NCBI GenBank assembly: GCA_964530325.1
Contig: CAZHAX010000001.1
Coordinates: 186,128 to 250,127 of the forward strand
Length of the DNA: 64,000 bases
DNA from: an uncultured Anaerolineales bacterium
Lineage (GTDB): Bacteria; Chloroflexota; Anaerolineae; B4-G1
Reading direction: 5' to 3'
Shown here in pieces: positions 2,692 through 14,079 of this stretch. Position numbers and translations under genes: made by a program. The stretch's first letter is position 1; every line of letters starts with the position of its first letter. A model generated the notes under the pieces. It saw nothing but the letters and a program-made list of their open reading frames with translations, did no database searches and was not told where the DNA came from.

Positions 2692-3900
2692 TTGTGTGTG
2701 ACCACCATAGAGAACCGGCAGATGGAAGGCGTTCAGCGGCGTTGGCGCTCCGGCGGTCGTATCTCGCGCCGCCGCTTTCTGCAGCAGGCAGGCATGGCCG
2801 CGGCTGGTCTGCTGCTCTCCGGCTGCGCTGAGGGGCCCGGTGGGGGCGATCTGCCGGCCGGCGATGGCGGTGTCCCCTTGGCCAGGGTGGGCACGGCGAG
2901 GGCCCCGAGCTACGACGAAGCGCTCGTCCGCCGGGAGCTGTCCACGATCTTTGACAACCTGGGTGGCCTGGGCGACGTCATAGGTTCGGGTGACAAGGTG
3001 GCCATCAAGACGAATCTTACCGGGGGCTCGTACCAGCGGCAGGTCGATGGTCTTCCCAATACCGAGACGTTCTTCACACACCCGGTTGTTGTGGAGGCCG
3101 TGGCGGAGCTGATGATCGACGCCGGCGCGGGCCAGGTGTGCATCGTCGAGGCGGTGTACGATTGGCCATCCTACACGCTGTTCGGCTTCGACGTGTTCGC
3201 CGAGAGGCTGGGTGCGACGCTCATCGATCTCAACGGCGCTGAGCCCTACAGCACTCTGTCACAGGACGAGGTCGGCGAGGGATGGTTCGTCTACGATCGC
3301 TTCTACTCCAACCGCATCCTGAATGAGGTGGACGTTCTGGTCTCTGTCTCCAAGATGAAGGGGCACGGGGAAGCGGGGGTGACTCACACGCTCAAGAACA
3401 TGGTCGGCTCTGTGCCCTGGCGCTTCTACGAGCTCGAGCTTCCCGGCCTGCGGGGGTACCGCTCGGAGTTCCACGGATTGGGCGACGAGACGAGGGCCCG
3501 CCTGCCGCGCGTGATAACGGACCTGAACCGCGCTCACCCTGTTGATATCGGCGTCGTCGATGGCATTAAGACGATGGAGGGGGGCGAGGGTCCCTGGATC
3601 GAGGGGGTGAGGTCGATCCAGCCGGGCGTGCTCATCGCCGGCAAGAGCGCGCTGGCAGTCGACGCGGTCGCCACGGGGGTGATGGGCTTCGACCCAACGG
3701 CCGAGTATCCTGACCCGCCGTTCCTGCACTGCGAAAACCACCTGAATCTGGCCCGCGAGCTGGGGCTGGGGACGAACAGGCTGGAGGTGATTGAAGTTGT
3801 CGGTCCCCCAATCGAGGAGCTGGTGACGCCGTTCAAGGTGGTACAGGCACCTCGCGCCGGCGCTGTGGCGGAAGCGATCTGCCCGTCAGTTGCGGGCTAG
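2692..3900 (+). CDS. DUF362-family protein with twin-arginine (Tat) signal and lipobox
   Basis: SRRRFLQQAGMAAAGLLLSGC is a Tat motif plus lipobox. Motifs KVAIKTNL, FTHP, VSVSKMKGHG are typical of DUF362. Start is ambiguous: TTG at 2692 or ATG at 2722. Confidence 0.6.
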   Translation: MCVTTIENRQMEGVQRRWRSGGRISRRRFLQQAGMAAAGLLLSGCAEGPGGGDLPAGDGGVPLARVGTARAPSYDEALVRRELSTIFDNLGGLGDVIGSGDKVAIKTNLTGGSYQRQVDGLPNTETFFTHPVVVEAVAELMIDAGAGQVCIVEAVYDWPSYTLFGFDVFAERLGATLIDLNGAEPYSTLSQDEVGEGWFVYDRFYSNRILNEVDVLVSVSKMKGHGEAGVTHTLKNMVGSVPWRFYELELPGLRGYRSEFHGLGDETRARLPRVITDLNRAHPVDIGVVDGIKTMEGGEGPWIEGVRSIQPGVLIAGKSALAVDAVATGVMGFDPTAEYPDPPFLHCENHLNLARELGLGTNRLEVIEVVGPPIEELVTPFKVVQAPRAGAVAEAICPSVAG

Positions 3901-4578
3901 TTGCGGTCGACCCTGCGCTGGAGCCGGGCGGCATCCTCCTCCTGGGGGACTGCGGGCGGGGATCTGCTTCACCATGTCCATGCCGCTGCCGATGCGTCTG
4001 CAAGAAGCTGAATTGCCTAGTCTCATGGCCTGCCGGGAGCCGGCGGAGCGCAAGGTCCAGACTGTGAGGCAGGCGCGGGTCGCGGCAAACTCACATAGCG
4101 CGGACGGTCGGATCTACGTCGTCTTGCAGTGCCCTCGATTGTCCAGCATACTCGTTATGTGATCGAGCCGCACAGACAGCGTGGCGTCTCATCGTGGGCG
4201 GCCGGGCGTACCATGGAACACCCGCAGTCGCAGAGATGCCAATCGGCAGACCGCGGCTCGGGAACATAAGCAGCCCTGTCTTTGCCGCCAATCCCGGCGG
4301 GACGCTGATCGGTCGCGTGACAGGAGCACTGGGCAGGTGCGATGCAACGACCTTACATTCCCGTGGACGCTACGCCGGTCGCCTGGAGCGAGGCCTGGTG
4401 CGCTTGCCCGGAGGGCTGCCGAGCTCTGGGCCCTGAGCCTCCGCTGCGTGCTTTCTACGCCCGAATCCCGAAGCTGGAACCGCAACCGTGGCTCTTGGCG
4501 TCTCCAGGAATCGGTCGACAAGGTGCTCGGCGGGCACGGCATTTCCGCTTCGGTCAGGCGAATCACCGCGTTGGCAAG

Positions 4579-5238
4579 ATGATGGACTCGAGCGTGGAAC
4601 GCATCCTACTCCATATCAATGCTGTGGCGGGCGTGACCGGCTGCTTCGTCTGCAACAAGAATGGAGAGATCGTGGCCTCCGCCCTACCCGGTATCTTTGA
4701 CCAAGTCATTCTGCGGGCCGTAGCGAAGGCTATCACCCAGACCTTTGCCGGGTTGGCGATCGCCCATCGGCGGAAGACAGCCGATATCGACCTGGTCTAC
4801 GCCGAGAACCGCCTGATCGCCAAGAGCCTGAAGGACATTTGTCTGTGCATGATCTGCGTGCGCAGCATCAACCTGCCACTCCTGAATCTGACAGCTGAGA
4901 CAGCGGCAAGAGAGCTGACGGCCGCTCTCAAAGGTGAGGTTGCGGAGAAGCCATTGCCAGGCCGTGAGGAAGGAGGGCCAGCGGCTGAGACGGTAGGGGC
5001 CGCCTTCCTCGGCCAGTTGGAGTGCGACCTGGCCAGAGCGATCGGCCCGATCGCCAATCTGGTTGTAAACGAGAAGATACAGGCCCTGGGTGAGAGTAGG
5101 GAGTCTTTCCCCTGGCGCGAGGCGAACCGCTTGATAGAAGAGGTCGGCGGCGAGATCACCGATGAGGGGAAGAGGACCCAGTTCAGCGGGGCCGCCCTGC
5201 GGGCACTGCGAGAGCAGACGAAGGGAAATGAAGCATGA
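4579..5238 (+). CDS. Roadblock/LC7 (MglB-like) domain protein, CxC/LNLTA subfamily
   Basis: MMDSSVERILLHINAVAGVTGCFVCNKNGEIVAS... is a Roadblock fold signature. The C-terminal CLCMICVRSINLPLLNLTAETAAREL is shared with paralogs at 48261, 48930 and 49845. The track ORF starts at 4342, but the upstream 79 codons are R/W-rich and non-protein-like. ATG ATG at 4579 is preferred. Confidence 0.65.
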   Translation: MMDSSVERILLHINAVAGVTGCFVCNKNGEIVASALPGIFDQVILRAVAKAITQTFAGLAIAHRRKTADIDLVYAENRLIAKSLKDICLCMICVRSINLPLLNLTAETAARELTAALKGEVAEKPLPGREEGGPAAETVGAAFLGQLECDLARAIGPIANLVVNEKIQALGESRESFPWREANRLIEEVGGEITDEGKRTQFSGAALRALREQTKGNEA

Positions 5239-6020
5239 AGATCACAATCGGTGCCAGGCTTGGATTCGGCTTTCTGGTCATGCTCCTGCTGGTCGCCACG
5301 GCTGGCTTGACTGCCGTCATCTCTTTCGATAGACTAGCCGACCTGACCGCCGCGCTGGCTGAGGAAGGCGACGAGCTGCGGACCATCACAGATATCAGGG
5401 TGGTCGTAGCGGAAGCCCACGCTGCCTTGGAGAGGGCGATGGTGACCGGCGAAGAAGAGGATGTCGCCGCAGCCGAATTGCGGCAATCGGAGTTGCAGGA
5501 GATGGTGACGGCCTACCTGGACAGCAAGGAAGCCGCGGGGGTCGAGAATGAAGCGTTTGAGGAGCTGGAACTCGCCCAACAGTTGTTGGACGACACCCTG
5601 GAGAGCTACCTGCATGCCTCGGATCTCAGTGCCAACCTACGCCTTACAGCCTTCTCCCGGCGGCAGGAGCTGGTCGATTTCTGCCTGACGATCTTGACCG
5701 AGATTGAGAGTGAGGCCAAGGACCGGATGGCAGACGCCCTGGAGGAAATCCAGAGCGCTCAGTCCTCGCTGCTGCTGATGATGAGTGGCGTTACCGTCGT
5801 CGCTGCCGTCATAGGGGCAGGACTGGCGGTGGGGATCACCCGTAGCGTGACCGTCCCTGTGGGGAAGCTCGTCAGCGCGGCTGACAAGATCAGCACAGGT
5901 GACCTAGACGCGCTCATGGAAGTGCGGTCGCAGGACGAGATCGGTGAGTTGGCCGACTCGATGGAGCGTATGCGCGTCAGCATGAAGGCGGCCTTGGGGA
6001 GACTCAAGAAGCAGCAATAG
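5235..6020 (+). CDS. Membrane sensor with periplasmic four-helix-bundle-like domain and HAMP domain, no output domain
   Basis: TM1 (FGFLVMLLLVATAGLTAVISF), about 150-aa helical region, TM2 (VTVVAAVIGAGLAVGI), HAMP (TRSVTVPVGKLVSAADKISTGDLDALMEVRSQDEIGELADSMERMRVSM). ATGA overlap with the upstream Roadblock gene. Confidence 0.65.
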   Translation: MKITIGARLGFGFLVMLLLVATAGLTAVISFDRLADLTAALAEEGDELRTITDIRVVVAEAHAALERAMVTGEEEDVAAAELRQSELQEMVTAYLDSKEAAGVENEAFEELELAQQLLDDTLESYLHASDLSANLRLTAFSRRQELVDFCLTILTEIESEAKDRMADALEEIQSAQSSLLLMMSGVTVVAAVIGAGLAVGITRSVTVPVGKLVSAADKISTGDLDALMEVRSQDEIGELADSMERMRVSMKAALGRLKKQQ

Positions 6021-6061
6021 CCAGATGCTCTCTGAGCGGGTCAAAGGGTTGGGGGCGGTGC

Positions 6062-6502
6062 TCAGGCCGGCACCGTATCGAGCGGATCGGGAGTTGCTGG
6101 ATCGAGGCCAAGCGTGGGGGCCATATCGCGCGTCGACTGGTCGGTGATGAACTCGACCCACAACGGGAAGTGGTCTGAGATGTGGTAGGACATCTGGCGG
6201 AGGGTGATCTCCTGGTAGACCGCGCCGGCGAAATCGATCACGCCGGTGCGCCCGGTTGATTCCAGATCTAAATCGCCCATGAACCAGGCGATGTGGTCGT
6301 GGAACTCCGGATCGCTGCCGTAGGTGGTCTTGAGCCCGTGCAGCTGGGCCGGGACGATCAGGCTGGCCAGCCCTGAAGGCCGCACCCGGCGCTGGTCGTA
6401 GATGAGGGCGAGCCGCTCGGCGCTGCCGGCGAAGCGCCCCTTTTCCTCTAGCTGATCCTCTCCAGCACGACTGCCTCTCTGCCTCGGGCAGCGACTCTCC
6501 AC
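6062..6502 (-). pseudogene. Truncated paralog of endonuclease/exonuclease/phosphatase (EEP) gene 9450..10496, lacking the N-terminal catalytic half and about 100 internal residues
   Basis: The C-terminal ~90 aa are about 85% identical to the C-terminus of the 9450..10496 product (LKTTYG..DHIAWFMGD..GVIDF.GAVYQEITLRQMSY..SDHFPLWVEFITD..MAPTLGLDPATPDPL). The upstream 25 codons and the N-terminal WNIR/IAIQEV catalytic region are absent. Confidence 0.5.
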
Positions 6503-6747
6503 CCCGGCCTCGAGAGCAGCAACTCTATCAGCGTCCCGTCGCCCCGCGGGCTAAGCACTGCGTACCGTACGTGACAGGCGTCGATTTCCATCGCCCAGTC
6601 ACCAGGGCTACCCGTACAAGTGCCAGCGGTGCTTTTGTCCGCCATCTGCTCACTCCTGATCTACGGACACTAGTGTAGCAGATGGAGGCAAGTCTGTCGC
6701 CACACGGACGTGTCAACTTGTGCGAATCGGGGAATGGCCCGAAGGTG

Positions 6748-9351
6748 CTACTCGGGCTGGGTAGAGGAGAGGAGTCCCAGCTCGCGCGCCCGCGCGACTG
6801 CCTGGGTGCGGCTCCGCACCGCCAGCTTGCCGTAGATGCTGCTGCAGTGCCGCTTCACCGTGTTCAGGGCGATCACCAGCTCGTCGGCGATCTCCTGATT
6901 GGAGTAGCCGCGGCCGATCAGGATGAGGACTTCGAACTCCCGGGGAGTCAGCTGCTCGACGAGGGAGTCAGCGACGGGCGACCCGGCTGAGGCTGGTCCG
7001 AACTCCGCCAGGAGCCTCTCCACGTAGTCCGGCTCGATCGAGCCCGACGCGGCCTCGCGAAGAAGCCGGGCCATCGCCGGCCCCTCGCTCACGAAGACGC
7101 GGATGAACCCCTCCGGTGCGGCCAGCGCCAGCGCGCGCTTCAGAGAATCGAGCGCCGCTTCTCTCTCGCCCTGCGCATCCAGGGCCAGTGCCATCAGGGC
7201 CCGTATCTCGATGACAAAGGTGTAGGCTCCGCTTGCTTCGTGCAGGCCCAGCAGTGATCTCAGCGATTCCAGCGCCCCTTCCGGCTCGCCTCGGGCAATC
7301 AGTGCGCGCGCCCGCAGCGTCTCCAGGGCCTGCATGAAGGCTGAGGGCAGCGTAACGCGGTCTTCGCCAGCGGCATCGTCGCCGGGGGCGAACACGGCCT
7401 TCGTCCCCTCCACCCACCGCAGCACCTTCTCCGGCTCGCCTGCGTCAAGCTGCAGGCGAGCCCGCTGGGCGGCCCATCTGAAGTTGGCCATCGAGTGCGA
7501 GCCTTCGACTGAACTGACCTCCGCTGCCTCGCGCAGTGCCTCCCAGGCACCCTCGCTGTCGCCCCGCGCCTGCCTCAGCCGGGACATTGCCGTGTAGGCT
7601 TCGTTGAGCGTCTGTGTGGCTCCTACGCCGAGCGAGAGCTCAACAGCGTTGTCCAGCAGACGTTCTGCCTCGTCCAGCTCGTGCCGCTCGATGTGGACAC
7701 CGGCCAGTTCTACGTGGCCCGCGGCAGCCAAGGGTGTCTGCTTGGCCAGATCGATCACGGCGCGGCAGGACGCGGCCGAGTCCTGCAGCTTGCCCCGATG
7801 GTACTGAGCCAATGCCAAGGCCTCCGTGGCCTCGACCGCCAGCAGGATGTGGCCGTCTGCCAGGGCCGTCTCGCGGGCCTGTGTCGCCGCCTCTACGGCC
7901 GCGCCTAGCTGGTTGTCGAACGCAGCGAAGAAGGCCCTGGCTGTCCTGTCGATCGTATCCAGCAGGCGGGTCAGCTCATCTCGCAGCGGTTTGCTGTCTG
8001 GGGCAGGGGGCAGGGCCTCAAGGGACTTCCTGCATTCCTGCAGTGCCTGCTGGGCTGGGCCCAGGTGGCCGTTCATGAACAGCGCCCAGGCCCGGTAGAC
8101 CTGCAGACGGGGGCGGGCGCCAAGCACGTCCTCAGGCAAAGTGTCCACCCAGCGCAGCAGCGTCGTCAGCCGGGCATCGAGCTGGCCTCCGGCAGCGGCC
8201 TGCTCGGCGATGCGGGCCACCCGATCGAAGTCCTCCGCCGTCCGGGCGTGCTTGACAGCCTCGTTGAGCAGCCCTGCCCGCTCGAGCCACTCGGCGGCGC
8301 GCCGGTGGAGATCCTGAATTTGATTGTGCTGCAGGGTCTGCCCAAGCCGCTTGCGAAGAAGGTCGCGGAAGAGATGATGGTAGCGATACCATCGTTGCTC
8401 GTCATCTAGCGGTATGACGAAGAGGTTATCCCGCTCGAGGAGAGCGAGCGTTTCTGCACGCTGGCGATCGCCTGAGACGGCGTCGCCAAGAGGCCCGCAG
8501 AGCCGATCCAGTATCGAGGTCCGGATCAGGAAGGACTCGACAGCCTCCGGCTGTTGGCTGAGCACCTCTTCGATGAGATACTCGATGACGTACTGATGGC
8601 TGCCGCCAAAGGCCTGCACCACCGCGTGGCGGTCCTCGCGTCCCTTCATCGACAGCGCGGCCAGAGAAAGGCCAGCAGCCCAACCCTCGGTGCGGGCTTC
8701 GAGCGCAGCGACGTCGTCGCCTGCCAGGCCCAGGCCACAGACATCGTTCAGGAAGGTTGCTGCTTCCTGAGCGTTGAAGCGAAGGTCGCTGGCGCGGAGC
8801 TCCGTCAATTGGCCGCCGGCCCGCAGCCGGGCAACAGGCAGCGGCGGATCGGCTCTGGAAGCGATGACCACGTGGAGCTGCTCCGGCATGTGTTCAAGCA
8901 GGAAGGCCAGGAGCTCGTGAATCGACGCCTCGGTGACCAGGTGGTAGTCATCGAGGATGAGGATGATCCGCCGGGGCAGCTCTGCCAGATCGTTGATCAG
9001 CCCGGTCAGCAACAGCCGCGCCGGCGGAATCTGGGCTGCCTGCAGCAAGGCGCTGGCGCCTTCACCGATGCCCGGTTGGGCCTTCTGCAGAGCGGCGATG
9101 ACGTAGGCCCAGAATCGCGGTGCATCGTTGTCGTCTTCGTCGAGTGATAGCCAGGCGATCAGCTCCTGCCGCCCGGCTGCCCACTCGGACAGCAGCGTCG
9201 TCTTGCCGGAACCGGCAGAGGCGGACACGAGCGTGATACGGTGGCCCAGGCGCATGCCCTCATCTAGTCGCTCGATGAGGCGCGGCCGGCTCACCAGGTC
9301 GCTCCGCGGGGGCGGGGCATACAGCTTTGTGGCCAGGAGTGGTGCGCTCAT
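6748..9351 (-). CDS. MalT-like LuxR-family transcriptional regulator (AAA+/STAND ATPase, TPR-like middle, C-terminal LuxR HTH)
   Basis: N-terminus MSAPLLATKLYAPPPRSDLVSRPRLIERL...LVSASAGSGKTTLL is the MalT/GerE-type Walker A. C-terminus LTPREFEVLILIGRGYSNQEIADELVIALNTVKRHCSSIYGKL is the LuxR HTH. The ATG at 9351 is the internal Met of the track ORF. Confidence 0.85.
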   Translation of the reverse strand: MSAPLLATKLYAPPPRSDLVSRPRLIERLDEGMRLGHRITLVSASAGSGKTTLLSEWAAGRQELIAWLSLDEDDNDAPRFWAYVIAALQKAQPGIGEGASALLQAAQIPPARLLLTGLINDLAELPRRIILILDDYHLVTEASIHELLAFLLEHMPEQLHVVIASRADPPLPVARLRAGGQLTELRASDLRFNAQEAATFLNDVCGLGLAGDDVAALEARTEGWAAGLSLAALSMKGREDRHAVVQAFGGSHQYVIEYLIEEVLSQQPEAVESFLIRTSILDRLCGPLGDAVSGDRQRAETLALLERDNLFVIPLDDEQRWYRYHHLFRDLLRKRLGQTLQHNQIQDLHRRAAEWLERAGLLNEAVKHARTAEDFDRVARIAEQAAAGGQLDARLTTLLRWVDTLPEDVLGARPRLQVYRAWALFMNGHLGPAQQALQECRKSLEALPPAPDSKPLRDELTRLLDTIDRTARAFFAAFDNQLGAAVEAATQARETALADGHILLAVEATEALALAQYHRGKLQDSAASCRAVIDLAKQTPLAAAGHVELAGVHIERHELDEAERLLDNAVELSLGVGATQTLNEAYTAMSRLRQARGDSEGAWEALREAAEVSSVEGSHSMANFRWAAQRARLQLDAGEPEKVLRWVEGTKAVFAPGDDAAGEDRVTLPSAFMQALETLRARALIARGEPEGALESLRSLLGLHEASGAYTFVIEIRALMALALDAQGEREAALDSLKRALALAAPEGFIRVFVSEGPAMARLLREAASGSIEPDYVERLLAEFGPASAGSPVADSLVEQLTPREFEVLILIGRGYSNQEIADELVIALNTVKRHCSSIYGKLAVRSRTQAVARARELGLLSSTQPE

Positions 9352-9449
9352 CCCGACCCATATTACCACGGTTCGCTTCTCGCCCCAAATGGCGGGCGCG
9401 GGGGGTCAGGCTATCGGGCTGCGGCCGCTTGTCGGGCCGGTGGCCGCTT

Positions 9450-10496
9450 TCAGTCCGGGACAGACTCAAGGGGATCTGGCGTGGCCGGGTCCAGGCCGAG
9501 CGTCGGGGCCATCGCCCGGGTCGAGCGATCGGTGATGAACTCGACCCAGAGGGGGAAGTGGTCGGAGACGCGATAGGACATCTGGCGAAGCGTGATCTCC
9601 TGGTACACGGCGCCTGAGAAGTCGATCACGCCGGCGCGCCCCGTGTAGTCCAGGTCGAAGTCGCCCATGAACCAGGCGATGTGGTCGTAGTACTTCGGCT
9701 CGGTCCCGTAGGTGGTCTTCAAGCCCAGTAGCTCTGAGGGGACGATGAGGCCGGTGGAGACGAAGGTCTGGAAGAGCGGGTTGTTGCCCCGCTTGTCTAT
9801 GTTGAAGTCGCCGAGGACGATGAGATTCGCCTCCTCCGCTTCGGCGATCCTGGCCCGATCGCGTATCTCGGCTGCGGCGTACCGGGCCAGTGCACGTAGC
9901 TCCGGGAGCCGCTCCTCTGGCACATCGCCGTACTTGATGTGGACGGTGAGCAGAACGAAGCGCTCATCACCGGAGACGAAACCGACGATGTAGGGTGTGC
10001 GGGCGAACTGGTCCGCCGCCAGCGGCGCCCTGTCCCGCCCCTCGAAGGGCGGCAGGACGATCTCGCCGGCCAGGCCGGATGGCTGCACCCGCCGCTGGTC
10101 GTAGATGAAGGCCAGGCGCTCTGCGTTGCCGGCTGAGCCGGCGGTGACGTCGCTGACGATCATGCCCCAGTTCGGTCCCAGGAAGTCGCTGAGGAGGGCC
10201 CGGATGCCGGACGTATCTCGCTTGACCTCCTGAATGGCGATGACGTCGAAGCGGCGGACAATCTCAGCAATCGAAGCGAGCGACCGCAGATTGCGCTTGG
10301 GCGTGCCGGGGTTCTCGTCCCATCCGGGGGAGTAGTCGCCGAGAGCTCTGATATTCCAGGTGCCCACCAGCAGGTTGCTGTCCGACCGCTTGTCGGGCAG
10401 GCCGGACTGGTCGATGCGCCGCCTGAGCCTGGCGATGTCCTCAACGACCGGGAGAGGGTAGTCCGCGTACCTCATGCTCGCACCTCCTGTGCGCAC
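9450..10496 (-). CDS. Endonuclease/exonuclease/phosphatase (EEP, DNase I-like) family protein
   Basis: LLVGTWNIRALG, FDVIAIQEV, LIVLGDFN, SDHFPLWVEF are canonical EEP motifs. Alternative start at 10475 (MRYADYP). Confidence 0.8.
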   Translation of the reverse strand: MRTGGASMRYADYPLPVVEDIARLRRRIDQSGLPDKRSDSNLLVGTWNIRALGDYSPGWDENPGTPKRNLRSLASIAEIVRRFDVIAIQEVKRDTSGIRALLSDFLGPNWGMIVSDVTAGSAGNAERLAFIYDQRRVQPSGLAGEIVLPPFEGRDRAPLAADQFARTPYIVGFVSGDERFVLLTVHIKYGDVPEERLPELRALARYAAAEIRDRARIAEAEEANLIVLGDFNIDKRGNNPLFQTFVSTGLIVPSELLGLKTTYGTEPKYYDHIAWFMGDFDLDYTGRAGVIDFSGAVYQEITLRQMSYRVSDHFPLWVEFITDRSTRAMAPTLGLDPATPDPLESVPD

Positions 10497-10670
10497 CTGT
10501 GGGCTAGGAGGGCAAGGGGGTGGCCGGCGGCTGGGCCAGGAAGCGAGCCGCCCCTGCGTGTGCCGCTTCCCCAGACTACGCTGTCCGGTGCCCCCGCCCT
10601 CCGTTGCACCGTGAGGCCGATCGATCCAGCCGGCCTGGTGGGCAGATTGTACTCCCGGACCAGGACAGTG

Positions 10671-11180
10671 TCAACGGCCAGACGGCCGGAGGAGGCGGGC
10701 AACTCCCGAGACCAGGTTCACGCGGGGCACCTTCTCGGCGTAGCGCCGATACTCGTCGCCAAAGCGGCTCAGGTTGAAGCGCTCCGCGTCCGGCAGGATT
10801 CCGAAGTATACCAAGGCAATGCCCACAGCGCCGAGGATGGCCACCAGCCAGTGCTGGACGATCAGAGCCAGACTGAGGTTGATCAACATGAAGGACAAGT
10901 ACTGGGGGTGGCGCACAATGGCGTAGGGGCCGGTGTCGACGAGCCTGGTCGTCTCCGTGTAGCTGGCGCCCTTGGCCACGCTGCCCCTTCTGCGCAGTTC
11001 GACTACCGGCCACCAGCCGAGTATGCACATGATGAACCAGGTGGCCCAGCCCAGAAACTGCACCGCTGGAAGGGTGGCCTGGCTGAAGAGGAACGGACTC
11101 AGCCCGAGCTGGATGACCAGTACGGCGATCCATGCGTACCAGCTTGCTGAAGCTCCGCGGCGCCAGCTGCTATCTGACAT
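10671..11180 (-). CDS. Isoprenylcysteine carboxyl methyltransferase (ICMT)/phospholipid methyltransferase family membrane protein
   Basis: Multiple TM helices. LVDTGPYAIVRHPQYLSFMLINLSLAL matches the ICMT/PEMT signature (GxY..VRHP.Y). Confidence 0.75.
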   Translation of the reverse strand: MSDSSWRRGASASWYAWIAVLVIQLGLSPFLFSQATLPAVQFLGWATWFIMCILGWWPVVELRRRGSVAKGASYTETTRLVDTGPYAIVRHPQYLSFMLINLSLALIVQHWLVAILGAVGIALVYFGILPDAERFNLSRFGDEYRRYAEKVPRVNLVSGVARLLRPSGR

Positions 11181-12678: not shown

Positions 12679-12702
12679 TTGACAGGGCCGCGGTGGTATA
12701 TT
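12679..12702 (+). promoter_or_regulatory. Candidate promoter for mevalonate operon: TTGACA then TGgTATATT extended -10
   Basis: ttgaca at 12679-12684. tggtatatt at 12694-12702 (TGn-extended -10). Spacing to the -35 is short (12 nt), so it probably functions as an extended -10 promoter. The track ORF 12679.. begins inside this element. Confidence 0.35.
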
Positions 12703-12804
12703 GATGCTGGACCGCCGGGGCCCGTCTGCGTACCGGCGGCTCCTATACGTCTGGAACCTATCTGTCTAATGGCAGGTGATAGCAACGGTGGCAGGTGTTC
12801 CCGT

Positions 12805-14079
12805 ATGGCCGGTTTCTACAGCCGGCCTCCGCAGGAGCGGATCGAGCTGGTCAGCCGTTGGGCAGCCCTGTCGCCAGAGGAAGCCAGCGTGCTAGGGAGC
12901 CGATGCGCGCTCGACTTGGCGCTGGCTAGTCGGCTGGTCGAGAACGTCGTCGGAGTGCACGGCCTGCCGCTCGCCATCGCGGTCAACTTCGTGGTTAATG
13001 GGCGAGACGTGTTGGTGCCCATGGCGGTGGAGGAGCCATCGGTGGTAGCCGGGGCCTCGGCCGCAGCCAAGCTGGCTCGCGAAGGCGGTGGCTTCAAGGC
13101 AGAGGCGACGGCACCGGAGATGATCGGCCAGCTGCAGGTACTGAACGTTGCCAATCCGGAACAGGCCCGCAGCCGCTTGCTGGAGTCGCGGGACGAGTTG
13201 CTGGCGCTGGCGGACGAGACGGATCCCGTGCTCGTCGGTCTGGGAGGAGGGGCGCGCGATCTGGAGGTGCGTCTCCTGGAGAATACGCCCGCCGGGCCGA
13301 TGCTCGTCGTCCACCTGATCGTCGACTGCCGGGATGCGATGGGAGCGAACGTAGTCAACACGGCGTGTGAAGCGCTGGCCGGTCCAGTAGAGCGGATCAC
13401 CGGTGGCAGGGTAGTGCTGCGGATCGTATCGAACCTGGCCGACAGGCGGTTGGCGAAGGCGCGCTGCTCGTTGCCTGAGGAGGGGCTGGCGCGAGACGAG
13501 TACTCGGGAGAAGAAGTGGCTCGGGGAATCGTCGATGCCTGGGCCCTGGCCGCGGCAGATCCGCACCGGGCTGCGACTCACAACAAGGGGATAATGAACG
13601 GCGTAGATGCAGTCGTTGTTGCCACAGGGAACGACTGGCGGGCCGTAGAGGCTGGGGCCCACGCCTATGCCGCTCGCACCGGGCGCTATGCCAGCCTGAC
13701 TACCTGGCAGCGCGATGGACAAGGCAATCTGGCCGGCGAGCTGGAGATGCCCCTGGCAGTGGGCACTGTGGGCGGAACGACGGGTGCCCATCCGACGGCG
13801 CAGGTCGCCCTCAAGATCCTGGGCGTGGAGACTGCAGGCGAGTTGGCAGAGGTGATCGCCTCGGTGGGCCTGGCTCAGAACCTGGCCGCGCTGCGGGCGC
13901 TGGCCACTGAGGGGATTCAGCGCGGCCACATGCGCTTGCATGCACGGCAGGTTGCGGCCGCCGCCGGTGCCCGCGGGGATGACATCGAGGAAGTTGCAGA
14001 GGGGATGCGGAGCGAAGGCACCATCCGGCCGGACCGGGCGGAAGCGATACTCGCACAGATCCGCAAACGGGACGTCTGA
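12805..14079 (+). CDS. Hydroxymethylglutaryl-CoA reductase, class II
   Basis: MAGFYSRPPQERIELV start with aggtg SD 7 nt upstream. ENVVG, DAMGANVVNT (class II signature, versus DAMGMN in class I) and GTVGG are present. About 425 aa, like P. mevalonii HMGR. Confidence 0.85.
   Translation: MAGFYSRPPQERIELVSRWAALSPEEASVLGSRCALDLALASRLVENVVGVHGLPLAIAVNFVVNGRDVLVPMAVEEPSVVAGASAAAKLAREGGGFKAEATAPEMIGQLQVLNVANPEQARSRLLESRDELLALADETDPVLVGLGGGARDLEVRLLENTPAGPMLVVHLIVDCRDAMGANVVNTACEALAGPVERITGGRVVLRIVSNLADRRLAKARCSLPEEGLARDEYSGEEVARGIVDAWALAAADPHRAATHNKGIMNGVDAVVVATGNDWRAVEAGAHAYAARTGRYASLTTWQRDGQGNLAGELEMPLAVGTVGGTTGAHPTAQVALKILGVETAGELAEVIASVGLAQNLAALRALATEGIQRGHMRLHARQVAAAAGARGDDIEEVAEGMRSEGTIRPDRAEAILAQIRKRDV

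Follow-up and report, generated by a model that had tools for sequence, protein, structure and literature searches.

A probable pseudogene of a second DNase I-like EEP copy beside a MalT-like regulator in an uncultured Anaerolineales bacterium

Introduction

Regulators of the MalT or large ATP-binding LuxR (LAL) type are built from a P-loop STAND NTPase, a MalT-type winged helix with a TPR sensor and, at the C-terminus, a GerE/LuxR HTH, in a chain of about 870 aa. The central gene of the locus described here has the same architecture and differs from MalT itself in its profile score and its gene neighbourhood. The longer of the two EEP sequences flanking it shares with DNase I and the EEP superfamily the PF03372 domain, a predicted fold nearest to DNase I and DNase1L3, and the invariant Asn/Glu/His/Asp/Asn/Asp/His set. 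It differs from DNase I in its low identity (about 20%), an extra helix at the N-terminus and a conserved tail at the C-terminus. STAND NTPases beside nucleases are a recurring theme of defence islands.

A 3' fragment lying in direct orientation downstream of a full-length gene is familiar from the orphan C-terminal modules of cdiA and rhs and from the 3'-end duplications at att sites. The short EEP copy of this locus has that geometry; it differs in having no variable toxin tip, immunity gene, integrase or compositional island, and in retaining an internal block of its parent gene (codons 122–144). A second comparison is with bacterial pseudogene remnants. Failed horizontal transfer accounts for many prokaryotic pseudogenes (Liu et al., 2004; PMC522871), and such remnants, left by redundant duplicates or by failed transfers, resemble the present one in being truncated and internally deleted, in having an intact homolog in the genome, in being lineage-specific and under relaxed constraint, and in belonging to a patchy, transfer-prone family. 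The remnant described here differs from them in lying 3.4 kb from the intact copy in direct orientation, with the regulator bracketed between the two, and because of this arrangement it has the misleading look of a structured element.

The locus lies in a 64-kb window, by which we mean the whole stretch of DNA that was analysed. An initial annotation had described positions 6062–10496 as a MalT-like regulator flanked by a full-length and a decayed EEP paralog, and the three ORFs exist as they were given there. The features are collected in Table 1.

Results

Table 1. Coordinates of the features at the EEP–regulator locus (positions in the window).
Feature	Position	Strand	Basis
Convergent HAMP-domain gene bounding the remnant	5235..6020	+	PF00672; syntenic in L081
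Mechanical 146-aa ORF over the remnant	6062..6502	-	ORF list; annotated "hypothetical protein" by gene callers
EEP remnant, block B	6062..6360	-	Resident codons 250–348 plus stop; 80% nt (E = 2e-76), 81% aa
Internal-deletion junction, ATCGTCC microhomology	6352..6358	-	Heptamer occurs twice in the resident gene, 315 nt apart
EEP remnant, block A	6352..6435	-	Resident codons 122–144 plus junction (10055–10138); 82–84% nt (E = 6e-20), 69% aa
orf65, small conserved gene downstream of the regulator	6448..6645	-	Homologs at the same position in relatives
MalT-like (LAL family) STAND NTPase/LuxR-HTH regulator	6748..9369	-	Pfam domains
Resident EEP gene, DNase I-like, 341 aa from ATG 10475	9450..10475	-	PF03372, fold model
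Sigma-70-type promoter TTGACA-17-TACAAT, upstream of the EEP gene	10646..10674	-	11/12 consensus match

The mechanical ORF of the full-length (resident) EEP gene reaches a GTG at 10496. Its product matches PF03372 with 41.4 bits (cutoff 24.5) and belongs to a family with over 3500 homologs, about 337 aa in length. Foldseek searches with its AF2 model (pLDDT 81.7, pTM 0.86) gave DNase1L3 and DNase I as the best PDB matches (E-values 4e-16 to 1e-14, target TM 0.67–0.77). Residues N41, E83, H179, D223, N225, D264 and D305/H306, which we take from their motif positions to be the counterparts of the catalytic residues of DNase I, are invariant or nearly so among 40 homologs. Domain and fold model thus bear out the earlier reading of the long gene as an EEP-fold enzyme, for which a four-layer alpha/beta sandwich and a Mg-dependent nuclease activity are predicted. 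Inspection of the sequence gave no evident signal peptide. The family is found across phyla at 60–72% identity and without conserved neighbours; neighbour clustering in 44 EEP loci yielded no conserved partner, and a STAND neighbour was found in none of 80 EEP loci of reference genomes.

For the middle gene, Pfam and NCBIfam profiles agree with the MalT-like STAND NTPase with a LuxR/GerE HTH that had been recognised by eye. The translation matches TPR_MalT (PF17874, 143.4 bits), GerE (PF00196, 58.2 bits, residues 806–860), AAA_16 and NACHT-like domains, and Walker A (GSGKTT) and Walker B (ILILDD) motifs are visible in it; the MalT winged helix (PF25873, WHD_MalT) is recorded for the copy in L171 (873 aa, 99.96% nt identical). 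Judging from the alignment with L081 and L168, the true start is likely the ATG at 9351, giving 867 aa. The MalT equivalog NF003420 was matched in three separate stretches with 425.5 bits, below its cutoff of 537, and the neighbouring genes are EEP, orf65, HAMP and ICMT-like genes with no maltose genes nearby, so that an assignment as MalT ortholog was rejected. Most likely the product is an ATP- and ligand-dependent LuxR-type transcription factor. Its best relatives in metagenomes are about 60% identical and come without EEP or orf65, and are therefore of no help in dating the insertion of the short EEP copy.

The direct repeat proposed earlier between 9450..10496 and 6062..6502 was recovered by alignment. 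BLASTN aligned 6046–6345 with 9434–9733 without gaps over 300–305 nt (79–80% nt identity, E-value = 2e-76), and the second block (block A in Table 1) has the same, direct orientation. At the protein level, aa 48–145 of the short ORF correspond to aa 250–347 of the full-length protein (81% identical, 94% similar, E-value = 9e-60) and aa 25–47 to aa 122–144; the previous estimate of 80% nucleotide identity was right, while that of about 85% for the protein was slightly high. The repeat spans the conserved EEP motifs DHIAWFMGD and SDHFPLWVEF and is no low-complexity similarity. Homology ends at the EEP stop codon, and comparison of both copies found none in the flanking non-coding DNA. Identity is uniform along the repeat (63–97% in windows of 30 nt), with no exact match longer than 28 nt, which argues against the gene-conversion tract that had been suggested as one origin. 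Only the regulator and orf65 (65 aa, conserved) lie between the repeats, and no third EEP copy was found in the 64-kb window. An integrative element with a duplicated 3' end was considered and rejected, given this content, flanking genes without a recombinase and a GC content of 0.64–0.68 throughout.

The loss of the catalytic N-terminus noted in the initial annotation is real, as codons 1–121 are missing; it is accompanied by a second lesion that had escaped notice, an in-frame internal deletion of 315 nt (105 codons, 145–249). This deletion falls exactly between two copies of ATCGTCC, located in the resident gene at 10061–10055 and 9746–9740. Because the internal block of codons 122–144 was retained, the fragment must once have comprised at least two thirds of the gene. 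The 146-aa ORF opens with 24 residues of unrelated read-through, in an out-of-frame overlap with the end of orf65. Two motifs of the catalytic set are left (DHIAW and SDHFP), while five of the seven (WNI, IQEV, GNAER, HIKY and GDFN) are gone. The ORF, which gene callers report in near-identical strains only, has no match in Pfam, NCBIfam or PADLOC, and with neither a family-model match nor a complete catalytic set the short copy does not qualify as an EEP family member.

Resident gene and fragment differ at 72 sites over 122 codons, distributed as 12/10/50 over codon positions 1/2/3, and third positions hold 43 of the 61 differences in block B. At positions 1 and 2 there are 22 differences, where a fragment evolving neutrally ever since the two copies separated would show 66.8 (P = 9e-13) and a pair of constrained orthologs 20.2 (P = 0.37); pairwise dN/dS is 0.135. 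The codon-position pattern shows that purifying selection acted on the short copy as a protein-coding gene up to a divergence of about 20% from the resident. It is decaying nonetheless, as seen from the lost motifs and from replacements at otherwise invariant residues: six substitutions fall on 34 alignment columns with a conservation of 98% or more (four in block B, and N124S and G144S in block A), compared with an average of 0.14 and a maximum of 2 for 118 intact members. The fragment forms a clade with the resident gene, L081, L168 and P0004 (73% bootstrap), and is sister to the resident in just 8% of replicates. Its closest known sequence is, marginally, the resident (80.3% aa identity versus 78.7% for L081; dN 0.107 versus 0.123), and no donor or intact second copy more than 80% identical to it was found in 5.8 billion proteins. 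Since synonymous sites have reached saturation (even comparisons with other phyla give a pS of about 0.5), timing estimates are rough and dS-based dating was abandoned; estimates of the neutral period disagree by method, the lowest being about 0.01 and the highest about 0.08 substitutions per site.

No trace of the fragment is present in the syntenic relative L081, which has the same flanking genes and in which about 93 bp separate orf64 from the HAMP gene, versus 428 bp between orf65 and the HAMP gene here. The fragment is present in each of the five other contigs that span the site, which come from five samples, and is fixed in the sampled population; its ORF is intact in every strain sampled, and it has two polymorphisms in total, both nonsynonymous. 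Population variants with one copy deleted, as had been envisaged for such a repeat, were not seen among these contigs, and neither were chimeric ones. Other short EEP relatives are independent wrecks with different breakpoints, being truncated at aa 225 or 267 or frameshifted, or else are cut by contig ends. A conserved stand-alone EEP C-terminal domain protein, which would have spoken against decay, was rejected: no such family was found, it is absent in L081, and the other short homologs share no boundaries.

Searches of the whole 64-kb window against Rfam gave no matches, terminator-like hairpins are no commoner in the region than in shuffles, and literature searches found nothing specific to the pairing of an EEP gene with a MalT-like regulator.

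Discussion

We consider it probable, with good confidence, that 6062–6435 is a pseudogene, the non-functional remnant of a second, once-functional copy of the DNase I-like EEP gene, in keeping with the decayed paralogous piece in direct orientation that the initial annotation had seen there. As this copy was under purifying selection up to about 20% divergence, it would have been either an old paralog or a redundant, horizontally acquired xenolog, i.e., a failed transfer; the latter is considered because the EEP family is patchily distributed and context-free, and the fragment fits both origins alike since no closer donor or intact copy was found in the protein searches. Only in this lineage would the second copy, or a piece of it, have come to rest between orf65 and the convergent HAMP gene. 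It has lost codons 1–121 and, after or before that, codons 145–249 through a microhomology-mediated deletion at the ATCGTCC heptamers; replacements at otherwise invariant residues have built up since, and the remnant presumably does nothing now.

A point against the pseudogene is that an open frame of 146 codons and an in-frame deletion are also what a functional small gene would show. The ORF, or a shorter product of it, might accordingly be a selected EEP-derived small protein, acting as a non-catalytic partner, an inhibitor or a substrate-binding module, and its intactness in every strain, the low overall dN/dS and an SD-like GAGG read upstream of the GTG start are all compatible with this. 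The open frame is equally explicable, however, by a one-in-three chance together with a high-GC genome. Six replacements at near-invariant positions are difficult to reconcile with a selected product, and so is the structure that would remain, since two strands and the last third of the fold are kept and the core needs the missing strands. The N-terminus would consist of the out-of-frame overlap with orf65, both population polymorphisms alter the protein, L081 has no such gene, and the remaining short homologs, with frameshifts or other truncation points, form no stand-alone family. A selected small protein is thus improbable.

The history first proposed is that the resident EEP gene was partially duplicated in tandem, either alone or together with the regulator, and that the copy has been decaying neutrally in place ever since. 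The direct orientation, the presence of both copies within the same 4.4-kb stretch and the marginally closer similarity of the fragment to the resident would suit it. It is contradicted by the codon-position counts (about 67 differences expected at positions 1 and 2), by the ortholog-like divergence of a fragment rarely recovered as sister to the resident, by L081, where the same flanking genes occur without the fragment, and by the absence of flanking non-coding homology; we regard it as very unlikely.

It is just as doubtful that the remnant has been retained because it is useful, be it as a small non-catalytic modulator of the EEP or as a homeologous partner for deletion of the regulator and orf65. 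If the crossover reading were true, a rare event would regenerate an intact chimeric nuclease gene and amount to an irreversible genetic switch. The broader proposal, that the diverged direct repeats form a recombination device, would have them excise or amplify the regulator and orf65, or would make the fragment a silent 3' cassette swappable into the resident, much as orphan CDI/Rhs C-terminal modules are. The geometry allows for the excision that had been suggested earlier: the repeats are direct and in register, and crossing-over within block B would remove 3388 nt, producing a chimeric EEP of 341 aa that is still in frame. Recombination drops steeply with sequence divergence, and repeats that are only 80% identical and share just two uninterrupted matches of 15 nt or more (28 and 20 nt) differ too much to recombine efficiently. 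No deletion or chimeric variant occurs in the five other contigs, and the fragment is uniformly similar to the resident, without a hypervariable tail or an immunity-like partner, so that such a device is most improbable.

That EEP and STAND NTPase form an anti-phage defence system, with the fragment as part of its turnover, is also far-fetched: the EEP-STAND-orf65 linkage is conserved in three related lineages, but PADLOC models miss the EEP, orf65 and the fragment and match the regulator only via its HTH and P-loop, its output domain is a LuxR HTH, the 80 reference EEP loci lack a STAND neighbour, STAND orthologs of 60% identity lack the EEP, and the neighbouring genes are housekeeping-like. 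The view that a transcriptional role is likelier than defence is strengthened by these results, since PADLOC returned nothing relevant and the linkage with the EEP is confined to one small clade.

By itself the pseudogene is one more bacterial remnant of little importance. It serves as a worked example of how diverged direct repeats around a regulator can mimic a structured element, and of how a single syntenic relative, together with the asymmetry between codon positions and the changes at invariant sites, suffices to reveal a decaying copy that had already diverged. Two by-products are perhaps worth more. One is the EEP family itself, very widespread, highly conserved, context-free and DNase I-like. 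The other is what would be a clade-specific three-gene unit and the working part of the locus, comprising a conserved promoter of its own, the EEP gene, the MalT-like regulator and the 65-aa protein. The small ORF at orf65, singled out earlier for its possible conservation, is indeed conserved and syntenic in L081 (64 aa) and L168, with its frame kept and a dN/dS of 0.29–0.38. Its family is small (proteins of 59–72 aa): a word-index search returned the same-species copy only, while an exhaustive search added five further small relatives, together with two spurious repeat proteins, of which one is a synthetic His-tagged construct. No MalT-like gene was seen beside the distant relatives on the two readable contigs, one of them only 745 bp long. 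Upstream of the EEP gene, where a promoter so near to consensus may make activation by the regulator unnecessary, both promoter hexamers are kept in L081 and in L168/L170 despite a different upstream gene.

The short EEP copy and its decay

The three minus-strand ORFs of the initial annotation were all recovered (348, 873 and 146 aa), and a repeat finder returned the same two repeat families as BLASTN, in direct orientation around the regulator gene as had been described. Translated, the short ORF matches the long one in two stretches, residues 48-145 with residues 250-347 (81% identity, E-value = 9e-60) and residues 25-47 with residues 122-144 (69% identity). Homology with the intact (resident) gene stops at the stop codon, and the first 24 codons of the short ORF are unrelated to EEP and overlap the 3' end of the small gene orf65 in another frame. 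The reported loss of the N-terminus was confirmed; additionally, codons 145-249 are missing through an in-frame deletion of 315 nt. Its junction lies on the heptamer ATCGTCC, of which the resident gene has two copies, at the parental sites, and the fragment one; this loss is a textbook microhomology-mediated deletion. No EEP copies were detected within the window besides the resident gene and the fragment.

Coordinates of the features discussed (window positions unless another locus is named)
Feature	Position	Strand	Remarks
EEP ORF, resident gene	9450-10496	-	start placed at ATG 10475, 341 aa
MalT-like regulator	6748-9369	-	mechanical start GTG 9369; probable start ATG 9351, 867 aa
Short ORF	6062-6502	-	146 aa
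EEP fragment	6062-6435	-
Repeat block B	6062-6366 / 9450-9754	-	80% identity, 305 nt, gapless, E 2e-76 (BLASTN)
Repeat block A	6352-6430 / 10055-10133	-	84% identity, E 6e-20 (BLASTN)
ATCGTCC, resident gene	10061-10055; 9746-9740	-
ATCGTCC, fragment	6358-6352	-
orf65	6448-6645	-
orf65 counterpart, L081	10759-10953		64 aa
orf65 counterpart, L168	5462-5602
Promoter TTGACA-17-TACAAT	10674-10646	-	about 170 nt upstream of EEP start
Leader	10476-10645	-
DUF8082-HAMP gene pair	4342-6020	+	HAMP gene 5235-6020, 261 aa
Rearranged flank	2692-6020		L081 11046-17120
HMG-CoA reductase gene	12679-14079	+
L082 deletion, EEP gene	~10335-10373		39 nt, in-frame
L082 deletion, ICMT-like gene	~11046-11079		~38 nt, frameshifting
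Frameshifted EEP gene, L178	2653-3806
Truncated EEP copy, L084	~3371-3743
Truncated EEP copies, L179-L181	~2840-3088

Over 122 aligned codons, the fragment and the resident gene differ 12, 10 and 50 times at codon positions 1, 2 and 3. The 22 differences at positions 1 and 2 compare with about 67 expected under neutrality since the split (P = 9e-13) and with an ortholog-like expectation of 20.2 (P = 0.37), while the pairwise dN/dS is 0.135; the divergence is coding-like. Constraint on the fragment is now relaxed, as it carries six replacements (N124S, G144S, K268E, Y270H, A288T and R309H) at 34 aligned columns with at least 98% conservation across 118 intact members of the family, which themselves average 0.14 replacements there and never exceed two. 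Of the seven conserved motifs only two are left in it, and the five missing ones include the Asn, Glu, His and Asp-Asn catalytic positions. The initial annotation was right in calling it a decayed paralog. Taken together, coding-like divergence and relaxed constraint show that the ancestral copy was functional for nearly all of the divergence and disabled comparatively recently, which still means well before the sampled strains diversified.

Origin of the fragment

The syntenic relative L081 has the same gene order on both sides (ICMT, EEP, STAND regulator, orf64, then convergent HAMP and DUF8082), without any EEP-like sequence between orf64 and HAMP. The spacer before HAMP measures 428 bp in the window vs. 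about 93 bp in L081, where the fragment matches nothing but the full-length EEP gene. The fragment is thus specific to the lineage of the window. Six more contigs, drawn from at least five samples, share 99.7-99.96% identity with the window, and the orf65/fragment/HAMP layout is present in all five that cover the site; among the sampled contigs, the fragment is fixed in this lineage. Only two sites within it are polymorphic, both nonsynonymous. Neighbour-joining groups the fragment with the resident gene, L081, L168 and the compared sequence P0004 (73% bootstrap), and only 8% of the replicates make it sister to the resident gene. The dN values put the resident gene nearest by a narrow margin (0.107 vs. 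0.123 and 0.138), and relative dating by dS is impossible because synonymous sites are saturated.

The fragment is very probably what is left of a second EEP copy that had already diverged, an ordinary pseudogene remnant. Since no sequence more than 80% close to it was found in the databases searched, two routes are kept as alternatives: it may be an old paralog cleanly lost in the lineage of L081, or a xenolog which would have been acquired horizontally, either complete or already fragmentary, and then not kept. The second route fits the phylogenetic patchiness of the EEP family and one report that failed transfers are prevalent among the pseudogenes of prokaryotes (PMC522871).

The suggestion that the repeats could excise or amplify the regulator is geometrically possible, as a crossover in block B would remove 3388 nt and produce a chimeric gene that is still in frame. 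However, with 80% identity the repeats offer just two exact runs of 15 nt or more (28 and 20 nt), and none of the five contigs covering the site showed a deleted or chimeric arrangement. A functional small protein is unlikely: although the 146-aa ORF is open and in frame, it bears replacements at invariant sites, misses the structural core, is absent from L081 and belongs to no stand-alone family of short homologs. Other short or broken EEP homologs, in other Chloroflexota, are independent wrecks with differing breakpoints. L178 has a full-length gene carrying two frameshifts, L084-L087 have copies truncated at about residue 225, and L179-L181, following a beta-helix protein gene, have copies truncated at residue 267. 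The broken copy of L084-L087 adjoins a divergently oriented CHAT protease and Trypco2 pair, and L085 also has a transposase close by. Partial tandem duplication of the resident gene followed by neutral decay in place is rejected, as the codon-position test, the tree and L081 all contradict it. Gene conversion is not supported, given the uniform identity along the repeat, and neither is an integrative element with att duplication, with no recombinase and no compositional break. The fragment itself is of low interest; the observation in the initial annotation is confirmed and made more precise, but its interpretation was wrong on the origin and likely consequences.

The intact EEP gene and its family

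The resident gene encodes an endonuclease/exonuclease/phosphatase fold (PF03372, 41.4 bits, cutoff 24.5), and its start was placed by homolog lengths and alignments. An AlphaFold2 model built from 40 homologs (pLDDT 81.7, pTM 0.86) is nearest to DNase1L3 and DNase I (Foldseek E-value = 4e-16 to 1e-14), followed by TDP2, Nocturnin and EEPD1; a PDB sequence search also matched DNase I, weakly (E-value about 1e-3). The canonical Asn/Glu/His/Asp-Asn/Asp/Asp-His positions are invariant across homologs. The family has more than 3500 matches and is unusually conserved, with aa identity staying at 60-72% in Chloroflexota, Gemmatimonadota, Acidobacteriota, Halomonas, other Proteobacteria and others. 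At 80 reference-genome EEP loci (L001-L080), lone genes of about 337 aa, neither another EEP copy nor a complete MalT-like neighbour occurs within 10 kb, and clustering of flanking ORFs at 44 loci gave no conserved partner. The family behaves as a stand-alone, transfer-prone gene, and its high identity across phyla, lone occurrence and lack of conserved neighbours suggest strong constraint combined with frequent horizontal transfer. In L082 (JGI 3300057029), a co-occurring strain with 99.6-99.9% nt identity to the window, one deletion removes NLLVGTWNIRALG (catalytic motif I) from the intact EEP gene and another disrupts the adjoining ICMT-like gene; these may be real loss-of-function variants or assembly artefacts. 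Both this very widespread DNase I-like family and the motif I deletion may deserve separate attention.

The EEP, MalT-like regulator and orf65 unit

The middle gene contains AAA_16, TPR_MalT (143 bits) and GerE/LuxR HTH (58 bits) domains, and WHD_MalT is recorded for a copy of equal length with 99.96% nt identity. It scores 425.5 bits against the MalT equivalog model, below the cutoff of 537, and is a MalT-like (LAL-type) STAND regulator, a family member other than MalT itself. The transcriptional role which the initial annotation proposed for it is upheld as the more likely one. A defence system of EEP and STAND is not supported, as the 80 EEP loci lack such a neighbour and neither EEP nor orf65 was found beside the 60%-identical orthologs of the regulator. 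Alignment with L081 and L168 favours the later regulator start (MSAPLL...), and a conserved CGAAMCGTGGTANTAT element of the EEP-STAND spacer precedes it.

The conservation of orf65 had been raised for checking, and it proved to be a genuine, conserved gene that occupies the equivalent site in L081 and lies directly downstream of the regulator in three lineages. Frame and length are kept, with a dN/dS of 0.29-0.38, comparable to HAMP (0.31) and STAND (0.24). An exhaustive HMMER search placed it in a small family of 59-72-aa proteins sharing the pattern DW..LD..GV.Y.VLD.Q.DR.L..L.S.PGW.V....AV.F.R; no MalT-like neighbour accompanies distant relatives in two readable contigs (one only 745 bp).

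The EEP-STAND-orf65 order was found only in a small clade comprising the window, L081 (EEP 87% identical) and L168-L170 (85%). The gene upstream of EEP varies within it (ICMT-like or DUF362), yet the near-consensus sigma-70 promoter is conserved in L081 and L168/L170, and the three genes therefore travel as a unit. At the end of the leader is a conserved GCCCUYC...GGAGGYGC pairing, a possible stem that would sequester the ribosome-binding site; it has no Rfam match and, in a comparison of only three sequences, no covariation. This unit, with its promoter and possible leader stem, may also be worth separate attention.

Flanking region

The flank of the locus is rearranged between the window, L081 and L170. 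Between DUF8082 and DUF362, L081 carries PadR, TrmO, Rce1-like and acetyltransferase genes absent from the window, and L168-L170 have a different DUF362 paralog directly upstream of EEP. The DUF8082 gene and the HAMP-only membrane protein gene overlap by 4 nt (ATGA-type coupling); their synteny extends to L081, and together they make a small signalling-like pair without an output domain. An HMG-CoA reductase gene adjoins the locus; in L081, HMG-CoA synthase-like, thiolase and OB-fold genes come after it to form a mevalonate-type cluster adjoining a polysaccharide deacetylase gene.
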